The position numbers and the translations under genes are program-made. The notes beneath the pieces were generated by a model. The model was not told the DNA's origin and searched no databases. It saw only the letters and a list, made by a program, of their open reading frames with translations. A stretch of 9,827 nt of DNA from Candidatus Odinarchaeia archaeon (GTDB taxonomy: Archaea; Asgardarchaeota; Odinarchaeia; Odinarchaeales; Odinarchaeaceae), in NCBI GenBank assembly GCA_029856525.1, contig JAHQXC010000051.1, positions 1-9,827 of the forward strand. The letters run 5' to 3'. The first letter of the stretch is position 1. Every line of letters begins with the position of its first letter. Below are positions 1 to 9,793 of this stretch, piece after piece.

Positions 1-734
1 AAGGATTTAGCGAATTTCTGGCCGTGATAGTGAACGGTCCCGATTTGAAGCGTCCGACCGTCTGGGAATATTGTGTCAAATGCGATAGAGTACTCAGCTC
101 CAGGGAATTTATCATAATCAGGTCTTTTACTTATAATATACGGGATGCCGAGCATGTCAAAAAGCTTCTTATATATTTCAACCGCTTCATCAATCTGTTT
201 TAAAGCGTCTTCTTTTGTAGCGTGAGCGGTGTGAGCTTCCTTGAAACTTGTGATCTCTCTAACCCTGATTAAAGGTTTAGTGGCCTTAGTTTCATATCTG
301 ACAGTGTTAACAAGCTGCCAGACTTTAAGCGGGAGATCTGAATAGCTTCTAATCCATTTCGAAAACATGAGATATATAGGTATCTCGCTGGTCGGTCTGA
401 TCGCAAGCTTCACAGCTAAAGGGTTAATACCTCCTTTTGTAACCCAGTAAACTTCCCCTTCGAAACCTTTAGCCGTCTCCTTTTCTAAACCGAATAGACT
501 GTCCGGTATGAGTAGAGGGAAATAGTATTCTTCATGCCCTGTATCAGTTAAAAGTTTTCTCACAATATTGAAAACCATGTTTCTAATCTTCCAACCGTAT
601 GAAAGCCAGGTTTGAAAGCCTTTAACAGGATAAGTTGTATCAACTATCTCCGCCATACGGAGAACTTCATTATACCACTCTCCGAAGTCGCTTTTAGGAG
701 GGATCAGCTTAGGTTTTTCGATTTTAGCGGTCAT
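1..734 (-). CDS. proS: Prolyl-tRNA synthetase, archaeal/eukaryal type; 5' part, runs off the left window edge (absent from the ORF track)
   Basis: Manual minus-strand translation from ATG at 734-732: [54 protein letters not shown]...[12 protein letters not shown]...[11 protein letters not shown]...[12 protein letters not shown]...[39 protein letters not shown]...[37 protein letters not shown]. Open for 244 codons; class II motifs 1 and 2 and the RPTSE motif are typical of ProRS. Confidence 0.97.
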
Positions 735-735
735 A

Positions 736-1419
736 TTAAGCGGTCTCCTGGAATAAGGGTTTAGCCTTACCTTTAAAGATTTTATTAAATAATTTCACTG
801 TAAGCTTAAGAGCCCAAAGCAGGTCGATGCCGGATACACCAGGCACGCCGCAAACAGAAACTAAAATATTTTTCGTATCTGAATCTACTTGAACAGTTTT
901 CGAAACAGCGTACGGATATAGAAAGAATGGTTTACTGTTATCGTAAAAAACTATATCCTTCTCCTCTAAGCTTTTATCCCCTAGCTCTGAAGGGAAAATC
1001 TCACCGCTCTCAGCGTATTTTAAAATAATATCTCCTTCTATTTTATCTTTATCGAATATGAAGACGGGTAAACCAACCGCGCCGGTTATATAGTTGACTA
1101 AACTAGATGGCAGCTTATCCGCGTTTATTTTAAGACCTGTAAATAAAGCGCTGCCGTAAACCTCGTTCGCCGGTTTAACATCTATAAGGTTAAGTTTCAA
1201 AACATCTCTGAAGAAAGTCTGATATCTTATAATATCCTCGGATCTGATTAAAGTGTCAGGATCCTTGAATTTTATTAAAGCAATATTTTTCAGCTTCAAC
1301 TCGAAATCCTCTAAAATTTTCGCGTCAACAGGTTTAATATTTACAGCTTCTATTATAGCGGAGGCTACAGTTAACCCTTTAACCCGCTCATTTAAAGTTC
1401 TATCTACGATTAAACGCAT
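736..1419 (-). CDS. Stand-alone B3/4-domain protein (PheRS beta editing-domain fold), divergent
   Basis: 227 aa. The C-terminal half follows the archaeal free-standing B3/4 pattern ([25 protein letters not shown]...IVFYD...LYPY...[15 protein letters not shown]...AL). GGGGAT SD-like element 6 nt before the ATG. Its TAA (738-736) is 1 nt from the proS ATG. Confidence 0.75.
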
Positions 1420-1425
1420 GATGAG

Positions 1426-1480
1426 ATCCCCGTGCGATATCTTCAGAATCGTGTAGTTAAAGCTATATAAAAATTTTATT
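1426..1480 (-). promoter_or_regulatory. Putative BRE/TATA and SD for the B3/4-proS unit
   Basis: Minus strand reads AATAAAATT-TTTATATA (TATA-like at 1471-1464) about 45 nt upstream of the ATG; GGGGAT at 1431-1426. Confidence 0.45.
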
Positions 1481-1991: not shown

Positions 1992-2045
1992 AAGATGATT
2001 ATTGATTAATCATAAGTTTTGAAAGATTTAAATACAGGTGAATTT

Positions 2046-2675
2046 ATGAGTCTAAAAAACTCGGCGAGGTTACTTCAAAGACTAATTTATTCACGGAGAA
2101 GTATACGTGTCTTTCAGAAACGTGAAGTCTCATATAAAAAAATTTTAAAGATACTAGAATACGGGGTTTGGGCTCCATCCGCTCATAATTCTCAGCCCTG
2201 GAGGTTTATACTAATATTAAACCAAGATATACGAGGTAAACTCGTAGAGGAGATGAGCCGGTTATATAAAGCGGATATGGAGAGAGACGGTTTACCTTCA
2301 GATATGATTGAGAGAAGGCTTTTAAAATCTAAGTTGATGTTAAAAGAATCCCCGGTTTTAATCCTAGTATGCTTGGATAAAACGGTTTTATGGAGTTATA
2401 GAGATGAGAACCGGGATGAAAACGAGTTTATCATGGGTGTTCAAAGCGTAGCCGCCTCTATCCAGAATATTCTACTAGGAGCCTCCGCTGAAGGGTTAGG
2501 CGCATGCTGGATGTGCGCGCCTTTATTCTGTAAAAAACTTATCCGTGAATTACTCCAGCTGCCCGGAGAATATGAACCTCAAGCTTTCATAGTAGTAGGC
2601 TACCCGGCGGAGAAGCCTATTCCACCGCCTAGGAGAAGTGTAAAAGAGGTCACATATATTATAGACGGAGTGTAG
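2046..2675 (+). CDS. FMN-dependent nitroreductase-fold protein resembling the FbiB C-terminal domain / stand-alone FbiE (putative dehydro-F420-0 reductase)
   Basis: Motifs RRSIR, APSAHNSQPWRF, ADMERDGLPSDMIERR, SYRDENRDENEFIM, QSVAASIQNILL, GLGACW, LFCKKLIRELLQLPGEYEPQAFIVVGYP parallel the mycobacterial FbiB C-domain as I recall it (SDLTSDGLPADAIERR...SYPD...AEHTM...GLGSCW...WEPLGAIAIGY). Directly upstream of cofD and cofC. ATG 2046 preferred over TTG 2019 because AGGTGA (2036-2041) precedes it. Confidence 0.85.
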   Translation: MSLKNSARLLQRLIYSRRSIRVFQKREVSYKKILKILEYGVWAPSAHNSQPWRFILILNQDIRGKLVEEMSRLYKADMERDGLPSDMIERRLLKSKLMLKESPVLILVCLDKTVLWSYRDENRDENEFIMGVQSVAASIQNILLGASAEGLGACWMCAPLFCKKLIRELLQLPGEYEPQAFIVVGYPAEKPIPPPRRSVKEVTYIIDGV

Positions 2676-2690
2676 CCCGGGGGGGTTTTA

Positions 2691-3638
2691 TTGGAGGTCA
2701 CCATGTTAAGTGGAGGGGTTGGCGGAGCTAAACTGGTTGAAGGATTCTATAATATTTTAAATAAAACCAGGCTTAACGTGATCTGTAACACTGGAGACGA
2801 CCTGGAACTCTTCGGATTATATATCAGCCCGGATTTAGATACTGTAATGTATACTCTAGCCGGACTGGTTGACGAAGAGAAAGGGTGGGGTGTTAGAGAC
2901 GATACCTTCCGTTGTTTAAAAGCACTCAGCGAATTCTATAAAAAAGAGAGCTGGTTTAATATAGGGGACTGTGATTTAGCCACGCATATATTTAGAACCG
3001 AGCTTTTAACGAAAGGTTATAGTTTAACTGAAGCAACGAGAATTCTATGCGAAAACCTAGGGCTAGATAGAGTTAACCTTCAGCCGATGAGCGATGACCC
3101 TGTTAGAACAATGGTAATGGTGGACTCCGGCGTCTACCTTTCTTTTCAAGAGTATTTTGTGAAGAGAAAATGCCGGGATCCGGTTTTAAACGTGATATAT
3201 AAGGGTTCAGATGAAGCTAAACCCGGCGGCCATGTTTTAGAAAGCATAGCCAGAGCGGATATAATAATAATATCTCCTAGCAATCCTATAGCTTCGATAG
3301 GTCCTATTCTATCAGTTAAAGGTATTCGCGAACAATTAAAGAAAGCGGATTGTATAAGAGTAGCGGTGACGCCGATTATTCAAGGAGCTCCCTTAAAAGG
3401 TCCGGCGGATAAATTTATGGCAGGGCTTGGATTCGAGGTTTCCGCTTTAGGTGTAGCTGAGTATTATAAAGGTTTAGCTGATGTTTTCATTCTAGATGAG
3501 AGAGACGCTTACTTGAAGAATAAGATAGAAGAGCTCGGCTACAAGGTTCACGTAACTGACACTGTTATGAATAGTTTAAAAGATAAAATAAGGCTAAGCA
3601 GGTTTATATTAAAAGCAGTCGGGTTGAAGGAGAGTTAA
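2691..3638 (+). CDS. cofD: 2-phospho-L-lactate/PEP transferase (LPPG/EPPG:Fo transferase), F420 biosynthesis
   Basis: VTMLSGGVGGAK, NTGDD, PDLDTVMYTLAG, GDCDLATHIFRT, PMSDDPVRT, FQEYFV, PSNPIASIGPIL, GPADKFM. TTG start with a G7 run 5 nt upstream. Confidence 0.96.
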   Translation: MEVTMLSGGVGGAKLVEGFYNILNKTRLNVICNTGDDLELFGLYISPDLDTVMYTLAGLVDEEKGWGVRDDTFRCLKALSEFYKKESWFNIGDCDLATHIFRTELLTKGYSLTEATRILCENLGLDRVNLQPMSDDPVRTMVMVDSGVYLSFQEYFVKRKCRDPVLNVIYKGSDEAKPGGHVLESIARADIIIISPSNPIASIGPILSVKGIREQLKKADCIRVAVTPIIQGAPLKGPADKFMAGLGFEVSALGVAEYYKGLADVFILDERDAYLKNKIEELGYKVHVTDTVMNSLKDKIRLSRFILKAVGLKES

Positions 3639-3640
3639 AA

Positions 3641-4285
3641 ATGGAGGTTAAAGCGAATATAATTATTCCTGTTAAAAACCTCTCTAAAAGTAAAAATAGG
3701 CTTTCAAACATGCTTGGAAGTTATCAGAGACAGCTGTTAGTATTAGTTATGTTAGAGGATATTATAAGAGAGTTAAATAATTCTCATTTCATAAATAAAA
3801 TTTATATTTTAACAGATGACGAGCTTTTGAAGAGAGAGGCTTATTATAGTAACGTTGTTGTCGTGATTCAGAAGCATGGATTAGACGTCAATAACGCGCT
3901 TAAAACGTTTTTAAACGAGGCTTTAGATGAGTTAAGCGATCACCCTGTTATAATAATACCTTCAGATATACCTCTCATTAAACATGAGAGTGTGGATGAG
4001 ATCGTTAAGATGATCTCCCAGCTTAAGAGGAGTGTTATAATATCCCCTGCGCATGATAATGGAACTAATTTAATCGCTTTACCCCCCGGGAAGATTATAT
4101 GCTTCCATTATGGATTGAATAGTTTCCGTGAGCATGCCACCGAGGTTTTAAACGCGGGTTTAAGCCTGTTAATATATGATTCAGAGGACTTAGAGCTTGA
4201 TCTGGATACACCTGAAGACGTTTACCAGCTGGTTAACAGCGGAGTCAACCGTAAAACCGCGTTATATCTTGCGAAGATGCTTTAA
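3641..4285 (+). CDS. cofC: 2-phospho-L-lactate/PEP guanylyltransferase, F420 biosynthesis
   Basis: IIPVKNLSKSKNRLS, IIPSDIPLI, DNGTNL, FHYGLNSFREH, LDLDTPED. Starts 2 nt after the cofD stop. Confidence 0.93.
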   Translation: MEVKANIIIPVKNLSKSKNRLSNMLGSYQRQLLVLVMLEDIIRELNNSHFINKIYILTDDELLKREAYYSNVVVVIQKHGLDVNNALKTFLNEALDELSDHPVIIIPSDIPLIKHESVDEIVKMISQLKRSVIISPAHDNGTNLIALPPGKIICFHYGLNSFREHATEVLNAGLSLLIYDSEDLELDLDTPEDVYQLVNSGVNRKTALYLAKML

Positions 4286-5163
4286 CATTTTATTTTAGAG
4301 ATAAGATAGTCTATTATCAGCTTAGCTATATCGATTTTTACAACCTCGCTGAGACCGTGCCATGAAGGAGCTGCATTAGCTTCAATCACTTTATAGCCTT
4401 CACTAGACTCTATTATATCGATACCTGTGTAATCTAATTCCATGACGCTGGCTGTTTTAACAGCTAACTCTTCAAGCTCAGAGTTTAAAACTAGTTTACA
4501 GGGTTTAGCACCAGCTGAAATATTACTCTTCCACTCTCCGGTCTGCGCTACACGATACATTCCCCCGATTACCCGGCCTCCTATAACGAAGACTCGTATA
4601 TCGCGACCAGGGTTTGGAATATATTCTTGAATGTATAAAACTTGATGTAAACGTTTAAGAGTTTTAATTATTCGATAAGATAAGTCTGGGTTATCTGATT
4701 TAATCGGCCCCAATCCCCGAGAACCTATTAAAGGCTTAATCACCACGCTCCCCCATTCCTCAGCGGTTTTATAAGCCTGCTCCGCGTCCTCTGTTACCAG
4801 TGTCCTAGGTACAGGGATTCTATTTTTACTCAGTGAAACCAGTGTAGCATACTTATCTTTAGCTCTTCTAAAAGCGTATGGTTTATTGATTAAAATCTTG
4901 CCGTCTAAGCTTAAATGCTCTAAAAGAGAGATTCTATAAGTTATTTCATCTGTGCTAGCTGCGCCTAACCCTCTTATTATACCAGCGTCGAAAGATGAAA
5001 GCTCTCTGTTAAAATAGAATTCACTCTTTTCACCGGCTAGCAGCGCGCTTACCTGGTCTAGTCTAATTAATAAAGGTTGGTGGCCGGATTGTTCAACAGC
5101 TCGTATTAACTGGTTTCCAGGCCAGCCTAACCTGTTATCTCCGCTCAGTATCGCGATTTTCAA
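4282..5163 (-). CDS. RimK-family ATP-grasp alpha-L-glutamate ligase, most like MptN/CofF coenzyme ligases
   Basis: INKP...AKDK, IPVPRT, VIKPLIGSRGLG, YIQEYI, RDIRVFVIGG, MYRV...WKSNISAG, GIDIIES, VIEANAAPSWHGL. TTG start with a G6 SD 6 nt upstream. The substrate cannot be fixed from sequence. Confidence 0.88.
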   Translation of the reverse strand: MKIAILSGDNRLGWPGNQLIRAVEQSGHQPLLIRLDQVSALLAGEKSEFYFNRELSSFDAGIIRGLGAASTDEITYRISLLEHLSLDGKILINKPYAFRRAKDKYATLVSLSKNRIPVPRTLVTEDAEQAYKTAEEWGSVVIKPLIGSRGLGPIKSDNPDLSYRIIKTLKRLHQVLYIQEYIPNPGRDIRVFVIGGRVIGGMYRVAQTGEWKSNISAGAKPCKLVLNSELEELAVKTASVMELDYTGIDIIESSEGYKVIEANAAPSWHGLSEVVKIDIAKLIIDYLISKIKC

Positions 5164-5292: not shown

Positions 5293-6576
5293 ATGAATAT
5301 GAAAGAAGTAAGATTCAATACAAAAGTTGTTCATGCAGGTTATAGAGGGGAGCCTACCACACACTCATGCTTCCCCCCGATATATCAGACAGCAGCATAT
5401 TATTTCGAAAACACTGAGCATGCAGCTAAACTCTTCGCATTAGAAGAACAGGGAAACATATATACTCGGATAGGTAATCCAACTGTCGCGATTCTCGAAG
5501 AAAAAATATCCGTTTTAGAAAACTGTGTAGGTGCGCTTGCAACAGCCTCCGGTCAAGCCGCTATAACACTAGCCCTGTTAAATATATGCGAGAACGGTGA
5601 AGAGATTGTTTCCTCATCAAACTTATACGGTGGAACATATAATCTATTAGCGGTGACTCTAAGAAAAATGGGTGTGAAAACCCATTTCGTAGATCCGAGC
5701 GAACCGGAGAATTTCAATGAAAAAATAAACTCGAACACTAAAGCAGTGTTCGTTGAAACACTGGGGAATCCGAAACTAGACATGATAGATTTAGAGCGTG
5801 TTTCCAAAATAGCCCACGACAATAATATTCCACTTATAGTAGATAACACGGTAACCACCCCTTATCTAATACAACCAGTCGAATACGGTGCCGATATAAT
5901 AGTTCACTCTATGACCAAGTATTTAAGCGGACACGGTAACACAATCGCAGGTATAATAGTTGACTCAGGCCGTTTCGATTGGAGTAGAAAACCCTTCAGA
6001 GGAATAACTGAACCGGACCCAAGCTACCATGGAGTAAACTATCTTGAAAGCTTCGGTGAAAAAGCGTATATCACTAAAGCGCGGGTTCAACTTCTAAGAG
6101 ATTTAGGACCCTCACTAAGCCCGTTTAACGCATACCTTATACTTCAAGGAGTGGAAACCCTACATCTGAGAATGCAACGACAATGCGATAATGCTTTAAA
6201 AATAGCTGAATATTTAAGCCAGCATCCTAAAGTAGCATGGGTTAACTATCCAGGGCTTCCAGATCACCCGACTCATAAACTAGCTAAAAAATATTTACGC
6301 AACGGCTATGGGGCGATTATAGGATTCGGGATCAAAGGCGGTTTAAAAGCGGGTAGAAAATTCATAGACTCACTTAAAGTTTTCTCACATGTAGCGAATA
6401 TAGGAGACGTTAAATCATTAGCCATACATCCGGCTAGTACAACTCATCAACAGTTAACTGAGAAAGAAAGACTTGCTGCAGGTGTAACAGATGATTTTAT
6501 AAGGCTTTCAATAGGAGTTGAGGATGTAAACGATTTAATAGAAGATTTAGATAACGCTATTAAAGCGAGTGGTTGA
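5293..6576 (+). CDS. metY: O-acetylhomoserine sulfhydrylase (aminocarboxypropyltransferase), PLP-dependent
   Basis: [58 protein letters not shown] (PLP lysine), [38 protein letters not shown] 5299 is an alternative start. Confidence 0.96.
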
Positions 6577-6577
6577 A

Positions 6578-8068
6578 ATGTCAGATTACGAGGAGGATAC
6601 GGTTGGACTGGTTGAAACACAGTATATTACTTTCGAAGAGGGAGTCCAGCTTACAAGCGGTTTTATTTTAAAACCCATTACAATCGCGTATGAAACATAC
6701 GGGGAGCTGAATAAAGATAAAAGTAATGCGATTCTAGTCGAGCCGACTCTCACCGCCGACGCCCACGTCGCTGGGATCAATAAAGAAGGACAGGTCGGAT
6801 GGTGGGATATGCTAATCGGGCCGAATAAAGCCATCGACACATACCAGTATTTTGTAATATGCACAAATGTTCTAGGAGGCTGTAAAGGAACAACAGGACC
6901 ATCCTCCATTAATCCTAAAACTAAAAAACCATATGGCTTAGACTTCCCAGTGATTACAATAGAAGACATGGTTAAAGTTCAGAAAATGTTAATAGATTAT
7001 CTCGGAATAAGAAAACTATACGCTGTGATAGGCGGCTCTATGGGTGGAATGCAAGCCCTTCAATGGCTAGTAGACTACCCTGAATATGTGAGGAAAGCGA
7101 TAATAATAGCAACATCTGCAAGAAGCTCACCTATGTGCATAGCATTCAACCAGGTGGGGAGAGTCGCCATAATGTCGGATCCTAACTGGAATGGAGGAGA
7201 CTACTATGATAAGGAGCCGCCGCGGGCGGGATTAGCTTTAGCTCGAATGATAGGCCATATAACATATTTAAGCGATAGTTCCATGCGTGAAAAATTCGGT
7301 AGAAAACTGCAGGGAAAAGAAAGCTACGGCTATGATTTCAACATAGAATTCCAGGTTGAAAGCTACCTGCAATATAAAGGAGCGCATTTCGTTAAAAGAT
7401 TCGACGCGAACTCCTATCTATATTTAACAAGAGCAGTCGACTATTTTGATCTCACAAATAACGGGAAAAGATCTTTAGCGGAAGCCTTCAAAAATGTGAA
7501 AAGCAAGGTTCTGGTCATAGGCATAACCTCGGACTGGTTATATCCAACATACCAGCAGAAAGAAATCGTTTTAGCGTTATCCGCTAATAACGTAGATGTC
7601 ACATACCAGGAGCTGGAATCAGACTACGGCCACGACGCTTTCCTAGTTGAGAAAGGCCAGATGAATTATATAGTAAAAAACTTTCTTTCAAAGAACAAGG
7701 TACGCGACATCATGATGAAGGGAATAAAGGTTTTGAAACCTGAGGATAACATTGAGAAAGCCGCTCAGATAATGCTTAACGAATCAGTCACCCACCTACC
7801 GGTAGTAGACGATGACAACCAGCTCATAGGCATAGTCACCTCCTGGGATTTATGTAAAGCAATAACAGGCCACTACTCGAAAATCGAGGAGATCATGACT
7901 AGAAACGTTATCACAGTGAATCTGGAAGACGATATCCATGTAGCCGCTAATAAAATGAAAAAATACGATTTCTCAGCGCTACCGGTTTTAGATAATAATA
8001 ATAAACTTGTGGGTATGATAAACGTTGAGGCGATAACAACCGTCCTAGGGAAAAGCTACTTCCCGTGA
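6578..8068 (+). CDS. metX: Homoserine O-acetyltransferase (MetX alpha/beta hydrolase) with C-terminal CBS pair
   Basis: AYETYGELN, GWWD, NVLGGCKGTTGPSS, FPVITIEDMV, GGSMGGMQAL (catalytic Ser), ARMIGHITYLS, RFDANSYL, SDWLYP (Asp), YGHDAFL (His). Two CBS repeats from about 7700 to 8045. ATG 6578 lies 1 nt after the metY TGA; the ORF track uses GTG 6569. Confidence 0.94.
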   Translation: MSDYEEDTVGLVETQYITFEEGVQLTSGFILKPITIAYETYGELNKDKSNAILVEPTLTADAHVAGINKEGQVGWWDMLIGPNKAIDTYQYFVICTNVLGGCKGTTGPSSINPKTKKPYGLDFPVITIEDMVKVQKMLIDYLGIRKLYAVIGGSMGGMQALQWLVDYPEYVRKAIIIATSARSSPMCIAFNQVGRVAIMSDPNWNGGDYYDKEPPRAGLALARMIGHITYLSDSSMREKFGRKLQGKESYGYDFNIEFQVESYLQYKGAHFVKRFDANSYLYLTRAVDYFDLTNNGKRSLAEAFKNVKSKVLVIGITSDWLYPTYQQKEIVLALSANNVDVTYQELESDYGHDAFLVEKGQMNYIVKNFLSKNKVRDIMMKGIKVLKPEDNIEKAAQIMLNESVTHLPVVDDDNQLIGIVTSWDLCKAITGHYSKIEEIMTRNVITVNLEDDIHVAANKMKKYDFSALPVLDNNNKLVGMINVEAITTVLGKSYFP

Positions 8069-8127: not shown

Positions 8128-8550
8128 ATGAATTACGTGATAGACGTTATGAGGCAGCCTAAAACATGTCCACCTGAGATGAAAGTAAGTGAAGCAGCCC
8201 GGATAATGAGAAAAGAGAGAATAGGCAGTCTAATAGTTGTTGATGAAAACCAGAGGGTTCAAGGTTTAGTAACTGAAAGAGACCTAGTATACAGGATTTT
8301 AGCAGAGGATAAAAACCCCGGGGATTACACTGTTAAAGATATTATGACAAAGGATCCGGTTACAATTAAACCTTATAACACTATATTCGAAGCTATAAAA
8401 ATTATGAGAGAGAAGCATGTTAGACGGCTGCCGGTTTTAAAAGAAGATAAACTGATCGGAATAATAACTGAACGAGAAATATTAACGTATATTCTAAAAG
8501 CTACTGAAGCCGTCGATAAAACAGCTATATTCAAAGAAATATTCCTATAA
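8128..8550 (+). CDS. Stand-alone CBS-pair (Bateman module) protein
   Basis: 140 aa with two CBS repeats: VIDVM...EAARIM...GSLIVVDE...GLVTERD and VKDIMTKDPVTI...EAIKIM...RRLPVL...GIITERE. Confidence 0.93.
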   Translation: MNYVIDVMRQPKTCPPEMKVSEAARIMRKERIGSLIVVDENQRVQGLVTERDLVYRILAEDKNPGDYTVKDIMTKDPVTIKPYNTIFEAIKIMREKHVRRLPVLKEDKLIGIITEREILTYILKATEAVDKTAIFKEIFL

Positions 8551-8563
8551 ACTGATAGAAGAG

Positions 8564-9793
8564 ATGATTATGCTTCCAGATCTAGTTACCGTTTTAAACA
8601 CAGCACCAGACTTAAAAGACCGTGTTAAAAAAACACCTGAAGGAGTAGTGAAACTAAACCAGGCTAGGGATCGAATCCGAGAGGAGCTGGAAAATTATAA
8701 AGCTAAATCGATACTTTACTGGAAGCGTCAGACAGGTGTTCGAATATTCGCTCGCGGGGAGAACATAGAAGCCGGTCATCTAGAAATAGACGTGAACAGG
8801 TACGGTGACGAATATTTCATAACTGTTAACAATATCCCGGCGAGTGAAGAAAACATAATAGATAAAGGTTCACTAGGCGACATGTTTAAACTATACGTTT
8901 TACAGGATAAAATAGTATTTGTAAACGATAAAAGTGAGAGATTAGAGCTGCCAGCTGACACATATAAACTCATAGAAACAGATTTCTTCAAAGACTTGTA
9001 TTTAGACGGTTCCAGTGACTGCTGTCAACTTACATGGCGTACAACGATGAGAGTTATAGAGGAATTAGAGAAAAACAATTATCCGGTTGAGCATATTAAA
9101 AGCATCAGAGAATTCTATGAGAGAGAAATATCTTCATGGCCATACCAGTTAATCTTCGATAGAAACAGGCTCACAGTTACTAATAGAAAAGTGAAGTTTG
9201 AAATGGATATCCCCCCGCAGGGAATCCCTTTAAAACACGACAGCTTAGTTGAATTCATGGGATTCCTCACAGGGTTAACAGGGACAGCTCACTCCGATAG
9301 TAAACAATTAGAGAACCTCAACAAGTTAAATGATATAACACCAGATAAAATCATAGAATACCTTGAAGAAGCTAAAGAGCAGGCTCTGCTTCACACCGAT
9401 CCGAAGTACGCTAAAGACTTATACGATAAACTAACAACTATAAAGTTTATTGAAGACCCTGAAAGCGGGGATATACTAGTAGCTGTCCCTTTAAGTGAAG
9501 AAGAACTACTAAAAGTTAAAAAAGAAATAGTGAAAATGTTAAAAGAAGGTGTTCCTAAGGAGAATCTGCCTGCGATAATGGATGAAAACCGGAGAAAACT
9601 AGGAATATCCAACTGCTTTGTACCAATTCAGGTAACACCTATCTGGTGTGGGATGACAATATACGTAACACCAGAAAAAGAGTATAACCCGATCTTGACA
9701 ACGAGGCTTTTAAACCAGCTTAAAACTGTACTTAAACGGTTAAGAGTATACTTCGAAGAAACAGAGATATCTGAAGAGGAAGCTATCGAGTAA
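8564..9793 (+). CDS. Hypothetical soluble protein, 409 aa, no family recognised
   Basis: Long ORF with the same purine-rich codon style as its neighbours, 13 nt after the CBS gene stop. No obvious signal peptide or transmembrane helix. Acidic C-terminal tail EETEISEEEAIE. ATG 8570 is an alternative start. Confidence 0.85.
   Translation: MIMLPDLVTVLNTAPDLKDRVKKTPEGVVKLNQARDRIREELENYKAKSILYWKRQTGVRIFARGENIEAGHLEIDVNRYGDEYFITVNNIPASEENIIDKGSLGDMFKLYVLQDKIVFVNDKSERLELPADTYKLIETDFFKDLYLDGSSDCCQLTWRTTMRVIEELEKNNYPVEHIKSIREFYEREISSWPYQLIFDRNRLTVTNRKVKFEMDIPPQGIPLKHDSLVEFMGFLTGLTGTAHSDSKQLENLNKLNDITPDKIIEYLEEAKEQALLHTDPKYAKDLYDKLTTIKFIEDPESGDILVAVPLSEEELLKVKKEIVKMLKEGVPKENLPAIMDENRRKLGISNCFVPIQVTPIWCGMTIYVTPEKEYNPILTTRLLNQLKTVLKRLRVYFEETEISEEEAIE

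Follow-up and report, generated by a model that had tools for sequence, protein, structure and literature searches.

A stand-alone B3/4-fold protein encoded with prolyl-tRNA synthetase in Odinarchaeia: a candidate accessory subunit of the enzyme

The stretch of DNA analysed here (the window, 9,827 nucleotides) comes from a Candidatus Odinarchaeia archaeon. It is contig C86 of a 1.32 Mb, 93%-complete genome. At its left end, two genes on the reverse strand follow one another closely. The upstream gene encodes a 227-residue protein that matches the B3/4 family (PF03483, E 1.3e-13 in Pfam) and is 85% identical to a protein named from Ca. Odinarchaeum yellowstonii. The downstream gene is proS, encoding prolyl-tRNA synthetase (ProRS), which is interrupted by the contig end and continues on contig C24. 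A complete ProRS of 490 residues is present in the related locus L004. The best NCBIfam family is TIGR00408 and the enzyme is of the archaeal/eukaryal type. The features discussed below are as follows.

736-1419, reverse strand: stand-alone B3/4 protein, 227 residues, CtdA fold (PF03483, AF2 model, Foldseek, clade support 96).
3-734, reverse strand: proS, codons 1-244 of 490 (TIGR00408), cut by the contig end.
745-750, reverse strand: Shine-Dalgarno-like CAGGAG for proS, inside the 3' end of the B3/4 gene (codons Q224-E225).
1464-1477, reverse strand: AT-rich, promoter-like stretch AAAATTTTTATATA; the B3/4 start lies 44 nt further downstream.
1147-1191, reverse strand: decayed remnant (residues 77-91) of the basic signature that reads DPTKxRPxxEALxRR in the CtdA-2 consensus, with K80, R90 and R91 replaced.
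1051-1107, reverse strand: residues 105-123, which form the helix and strand of the active site (N109 kept; V108 in place of Y104; F120 at the position of G116/H265).
904-918, reverse strand: YPYAV, residues 168-172, where the CtdA-2 consensus is YPYRD (V172 at the pocket position of CtdA Q173 and PheT G318).
793-834, reverse strand: predicted ProRS-docking helix, residues 196-209, the core of the predicted interface.
805-822, reverse strand: clade-specific motif L200-L201-W202-x-L204-K205 within the docking helix.
Beyond the window (contig C24 and L004): ProRS zinc-domain insertion, residues ~416-435.

The first-pass annotation had placed the B3/4 stop codon one base from the proS start, and the coordinates agree (TAA at 736-738, ATG at 732-734). 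It had also held that no separate Shine-Dalgarno sequence serves proS. That is not borne out: the Shine-Dalgarno-like CAGGAG lies 10 nt before the ATG. This hexamer is complementary to the 16S 3' end of the same genome, and its spacing is equal in loci L004-L007, even where the two genes overlap by 11 nt. The element AAAATTTTTATATA has near-identical copies in L004-L007 and is a candidate promoter of the B3/4 gene. Gaps of one nucleotide are ordinary operon packing. What lifts the B3/4-proS arrangement above chance is its conservation and not the gap.

The remainder of the window can be described briefly. A divergent nikR gene (1584-1991) lies upstream of the B3/4 gene, and in L004 a proteasome alpha subunit gene (8181-8903) lies downstream of proS. 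Both are conserved across the Odinarchaeia loci, but neither is conserved in distant carriers of the pair. Behind nikR, positions 2019-5163 hold cofD and cofC together with a gene of the nitroreductase family and, in convergent orientation, one for a RimK/CofF-like ATP-grasp protein, a set that resembles a cluster for F420 biosynthesis. These are followed at 5293-8068 by a MetY-like Cys/Met PLP enzyme and a MetX-like alpha/beta hydrolase that carries two fused CBS domains, and at 8564-9793 by a 409-residue frame with no Pfam or NCBIfam match.

What kind of B3/4 protein is this? Its AF2 model (pLDDT 86, pTM 0.85) is matched best in Foldseek by CtdA (9MKL/9F7E), with TM 0.71-0.77 over the full length. 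Profile matches and the tree place its descent within the free archaeal stand-alone B3/4 group, here called CtdA-2 with a label borrowed from PMC12449066, whose reference sequences were left out of the tree. The window's genome has three B3/4 domains: the window copy, a stand-alone copy on contig C44 and that of PheT on contig C32. The C44 gene (L001:1300-1983, in the region L001:421-1986) points away from a gene for a TrmI/GCD14 tRNA methyltransferase and has a gene for a long IFT52 GIFT-domain protein downstream.

The neighbourhood survey proposed in the first-pass annotation bore out the linkage. A B3/4 gene lies directly upstream of proS at 15 loci, with gaps of -20 to +9 nt. Ten are in Odinarchaeia: four Odinarchaeum genomes, one genome of the sister family, P0005, P0007, P0008, P0009 and a contig encoding an identical protein, which is counted together with the window's own locus. 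The others are the Thermoproteota-type P0010, Kor1 and INS_M21_B166, together with P0011 (a MAG labelled Promethearchaeota) and P0015/P0162. The direct look-up of contexts covered clade members other than P0002, P0004 and P0006. The distant linked proteins are only 27-32% identical to the window protein and have different flanking genes. By comparison, 117 further stand-alone B3/4 proteins, whose sources include Asgard, Bathyarchaeia, Nitrososphaeria, Hadarchaea and ANME-1, all lack proS within 1.5-3 kb. The pair occurs in 2 of 40 genomes of Kor1's Thermoproteota class, and no other B3/4 locus searched in that class is linked to proS. Since kin are not independent, the linked loci represent one origin, not 15.

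A second association is with tRNA-Pro. At locus L220 the gene order is B3/4, proS, tRNA-Pro(GGG), tRNA-Pro(CGG). P0013, which was first assigned to the clade through its motif and not through linkage and is also placed there by the tree, has a tRNA-Pro(CGG) gene 33 nt after B3/4. Its contig is only 941 nt long and lacks proS; a second tRNA-Pro-like gene is cut off at the contig end. No tRNA-Pro was found at the free B3/4 loci.

At all three Thermoproteota-type loci (L069:4678-4688, L099 and L100:3678-3688) the B3/4 gene and proS share a reading frame, with one TAG plus 9 nt between them. Read-through of the TAG was not adopted because a GGTGA Shine-Dalgarno sequence overlaps the stop. A search for a natural B3/4-ProRS fusion, which carries little weight with 8000 candidates scored, returned only PheT-like matches among longer proteins. 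Fusions of B3/4 domains to other synthetases do occur (P0071, P0098, P0127, P0108). They include one 744-residue chain combining B3/4, a YbaK-type editing domain and a class Ic (Trp/Tyr) synthetase, two B3/4 plus ArgRS (1124 residues), and a 1072-residue protein with a class II D/K/N synthetase, a tRNA-binding domain, B3/4 and HD. The B3/4 fold is repeatedly recruited to synthetases.

The linked B3/4 proteins form one branch (support 96). So do the linked ProRSs, also with the C-terminal domain left out of the alignment. The Kor1 ProRS groups with those of Odinarchaeia, apart from the ProRS of its own class (28 others). This placement fits a scenario in which B3/4 and proS moved as a unit, although the trees (FastTree or quick IQ-TREE, midpoint-rooted, thinned rows) are not used to claim a donor or a direction of transfer.

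Each partner also has a private signature. In the B3/4 protein it lies in a C-terminal helix, where L201 and K205 are both present in 17/17 clade members versus 2/214 others; free stand-alone proteins have polar residues at these positions. In ProRS it is an insertion of ~11 residues in the C-terminal zinc-binding domain, common to all 12 linked ProRSs. The segment is 34-37 residues long in these enzymes, 23-26 in 24 of 25 other Asgard ProRS and 23-24 in all 28 of Kor1's class-mates. Two genomes are of interest here. G053 is from the same order as the window and is 78% complete; no linked B3/4 was found in it and its ProRS is a different one that lacks the insertion. The Asgard genome G010 has a ProRS (L214:2473-3910) that groups with the linked enzymes, with an intermediate insertion and without the zinc cysteines, and no B3/4 adjacent to its proS gene. 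An unlinked, very divergent B3/4 protein of G010 (L213:2124-2721) has a docking-like helix. Possibly, the G010 proteins are a broken-up version of the same module.

Do the two signatures meet? Structure co-prediction, another suggestion of the first-pass annotation, indicates that they do. When ProRS and B3/4 were folded together the ipSAE was 0.88, compared with 0.07 for the best control. Of 80 solved complexes 58 come up to the mark used, and so do 2 of 110 mismatched pairs; these counts are only a rough guide here because the co-fold used its own small alignments. At least 93% of contacts recur between runs, and the partner pLDDT is 91 or higher. The predicted interface brings ProRS 416-435 and 449-458 against B3/4 196-209, 17-21 and 219-226. 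In other words, it pairs the ProRS insertion with the private B3/4 helix, and both signatures had been noted before the co-fold. Conserved hydrophobic residues make up the ProRS side (F/L416, F/L418, I/V424, Y/F457). Recall from a solved structure is an unlikely source of the result, since no ProRS-B3/4 complex is among the PDB matches. The complex is a predicted one. Physical partnership of the window B3/4 protein with ProRS is judged very probable. The zinc domain of ProRS packs against the catalytic domain (PMC7960942), so a B3/4 protein docked there would sit near the synthetic site.

The idea that the two genes are merely operon neighbours has to be weighed against these observations. It holds that a CtdA-2 paralog came to be co-transcribed with proS by historical accident, without any physical link. 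Short gaps are routine, nikR and the proteasome alpha gene are conserved across Odinarchaeia just as the pair is, and a single origin could account for every linked locus. However, outside Odinarchaeia only the B3/4-proS pair survives while the flanking genes differ, the co-fold brings the reciprocal private signatures together, and tRNA-Pro genes are adjacent. Mere co-transcription is therefore improbable.

The first-pass annotation had suggested an undescribed ProRS partner built on a fold other than INS/YbaK. The linkage, the matching clades, the matched signatures, the tRNA-Pro adjacency and the co-fold all speak for such a partner, although the reasons originally given for it (no Shine-Dalgarno sequence, no INS domain) do not carry the argument. 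The enzyme does lack INS and is collinear with 1NJ8 and 1NJ1. Nevertheless, this is the normal state of an archaeal-type ProRS and so is uninformative.

Whether the partner is also an editing enzyme is a separate matter, and the active site makes this doubtful for the Odinarchaeum copy. The roles of the relevant residues are taken from PMC12449066 and 10.1101/2024.11.30.626143. Window N109 corresponds to CtdA N105 and E. coli PheT N254 and is kept in all Odinarchaeum copies. It is the only one of the CtdA set to survive, since Y104 is V, G116, E118 and C166 are each F, Q173 is V and E191 is C. Likewise, PheT H265, G318 and E334 are replaced by F, V and S, and the basic residues K80, R90, R91 and R171 are lost. 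The CtdA-2 consensus (DPTKxRP..EALxRR / VVDAYN / YPYRD), scored at 26 residues, is not intact in the window copy, which keeps 6 of them. On this scale Odinarchaeum and its close relatives score 6-10, the sister family 13-14 and the basal linked members 24-26; free proteins have a median of 26, and the free paralog in the window's genome scores 25. The trans-editing role put forward in the first-pass annotation thus fits the basal members better than the Odinarchaeum copy.

The linked B3/4 gene is nevertheless under purifying selection. Its dN/dS is 0.08-0.17, and its amino-acid identity is as high as, or above, that of the free paralog. A pseudogene was rejected on these grounds (dN/dS about 0.1). 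Purifying selection together with residue losses suggests that the fold and the docking face are better preserved than the active site. Besides the linked copy, the Odinarchaeum genome has a second stand-alone CtdA-2 protein that is intact. In the Kor1 genome, where the linked copy is intact, no second stand-alone B3/4 protein was found. In these few genomes, the pattern fits release of the linked copy from catalytic duty.

We favour the explanation that the window B3/4 protein serves ProRS as a dedicated accessory subunit, ancestrally a tethered tRNA-Pro deacylase and probably non-catalytic here. Taken as a whole this statement has an even chance of being right. An archaeal CtdA-2-type stand-alone B3/4 gene would have become linked to proS, the B3/4 protein would have acquired its hydrophobic surface helix (LLWxLK) and ProRS its ~11-residue zinc-domain insertion, after which the two genes would have spread together; these steps leave traces in the sequences. 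The helix is predicted to dock on the insertion and to keep B3/4 beside the synthetase. The basal members, with the whole CtdA-2 signature, would be tethered deacylases for tRNA-Pro mischarged with Ala, Cys or a proline analogue. The Odinarchaeum copy appears to have lost its basic tRNA-binding residues and to have had its pocket filled with bulky ones. It would most likely be kept for a structural and not a catalytic role, as a subunit shielding the hydrophobic insertion and lending stability to the zinc domain.

Could the Odinarchaeum copy instead have remained active in editing? In this scenario the bulky residues F120, F166 and V172 would shrink the pocket to a sieve that selects small acyl groups, namely Ala and Cys, the amino acids mischarged by ProRS (PMC6344894), and ProRS would supply the tRNA. 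Loss of basic residues is expected where a synthetase delivers tRNA, as argued for PheRS B3/B4 (10.1101/2024.11.30.626143). The same delivery would make the basic residues of the window copy dispensable, leaving room for catalysis. N109 is kept throughout the genus, conservation extends to YPY, D123 and the fold, and purifying selection is strong. Moreover, no YbaK/ProX family gene was found in 7 Odinarchaeia-order genomes or two Thermoproteota carriers. That absence predicts little, though, because 83 of the 121 Asgard genomes searched likewise yielded no member of the family. Two relatives with both the linkage and the docking motif have K and Y, respectively, in place of the equivalent Asn. 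In addition, the equivalent of Y104 is lost, and in the published work CtdA is inactivated by a bulky substitution at G116. Continued editing by the Odinarchaeum copy is less likely than not, although of the alternatives it is the one to be taken most seriously.

A detached PheRS editing domain acting on Tyr-tRNA-Phe, or a CtdA-1-like canavanyl-tRNA-Arg deacylase, is very improbable: bacterial PheT is the best single-sequence PDB match and CtdA the best fold match, but the genome has a full PheT-length frame of 574 residues with its own B3/4 domain, key PheT and CtdA residues are replaced and the genomic context is proline-specific. A split PheRS was rejected on the first of these points, PheT being whole in the same genome, and a canavanine deacylase on the residues, only N105 of the CtdA set being kept.

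How does the proposed accessory subunit, with its putative editing ancestors, compare with known systems? CtdA shares the stand-alone ~225-residue B3/4 fold, but is a monomer acting alone on tRNA-Arg, whereas the linked clade is tied to proS and tRNA-Pro and has a docking helix. Most of the catalytic and tRNA-binding residues of CtdA are missing from the Odinarchaeum linked copy. In the basal linked members, on the other hand, the consensus shared by the free archaeal CtdA-2-like proteins is complete. PheRS beta B3/B4 has the same fold and the conserved Asn and places an editing fold beside a class II synthetic site. In contrast, the window B3/4 is a separate polypeptide with a different synthetase and without conserved pocket residues; at 227 residues it falls far below the TIGR00472 cut-off when scored as PheT. 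The archaeal-type enzymes 1NJ8 and 1NJ1 have catalytic, anticodon-binding and C-terminal zinc domains collinear with those of the window lineage and no INS. The about 11 extra zinc-domain residues of the linked ProRSs are missing from 1NJ1 and from unlinked ProRS.

To our knowledge, the known post-transfer fixes for ProRS mischarging use the INS/YbaK fold. Functionally, the linked clade appears to work most like ProRS-bound YbaK, without being of the YbaK family. In the YbaK-ProRS-tRNA-Pro complex, as with ProXp-ala (PMC6344894), a free-standing editing-type protein binds ProRS and gains tRNA-Pro specificity, and this offers a working model for the basal linked members. YbaK, however, has the INS/YbaK fold (PF04073) and serves bacterial ProRS, whereas the linked clade has the B3/4 fold and would serve an archaeal ProRS with a dedicated partner insertion. 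PF04073 has no match in the window B3/4 protein or its genome. A literature search of incomplete coverage turned up no description of a B3/4-ProRS pair or of a CtdA-ProRS link.

The broader proposal is that ProRS is heteromeric in some archaea, with a CtdA-fold subunit that sits on a co-evolved zinc-domain insertion and proofreads tRNA-Pro, and that this module, in places with tRNA-Pro genes, has moved between archaeal phyla, leaving living intermediates between active editor and pseudo-enzyme subunit. We put this forward tentatively, as slightly less than an even prospect. If true, proline mischarging would have a remedy that does not depend on the INS/YbaK fold, and the CtdA-2 group would gain its first substrate. 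That group is uncharacterised and has no known substrate (PMC12449066), and the linked clade offers it a concrete substrate candidate (tRNA-Pro), a partner and an interface that can be mutated. The members with 26, 14 and 6 signature residues may then form a graded natural series leading from an editing enzyme to a structural subunit of a synthetase.
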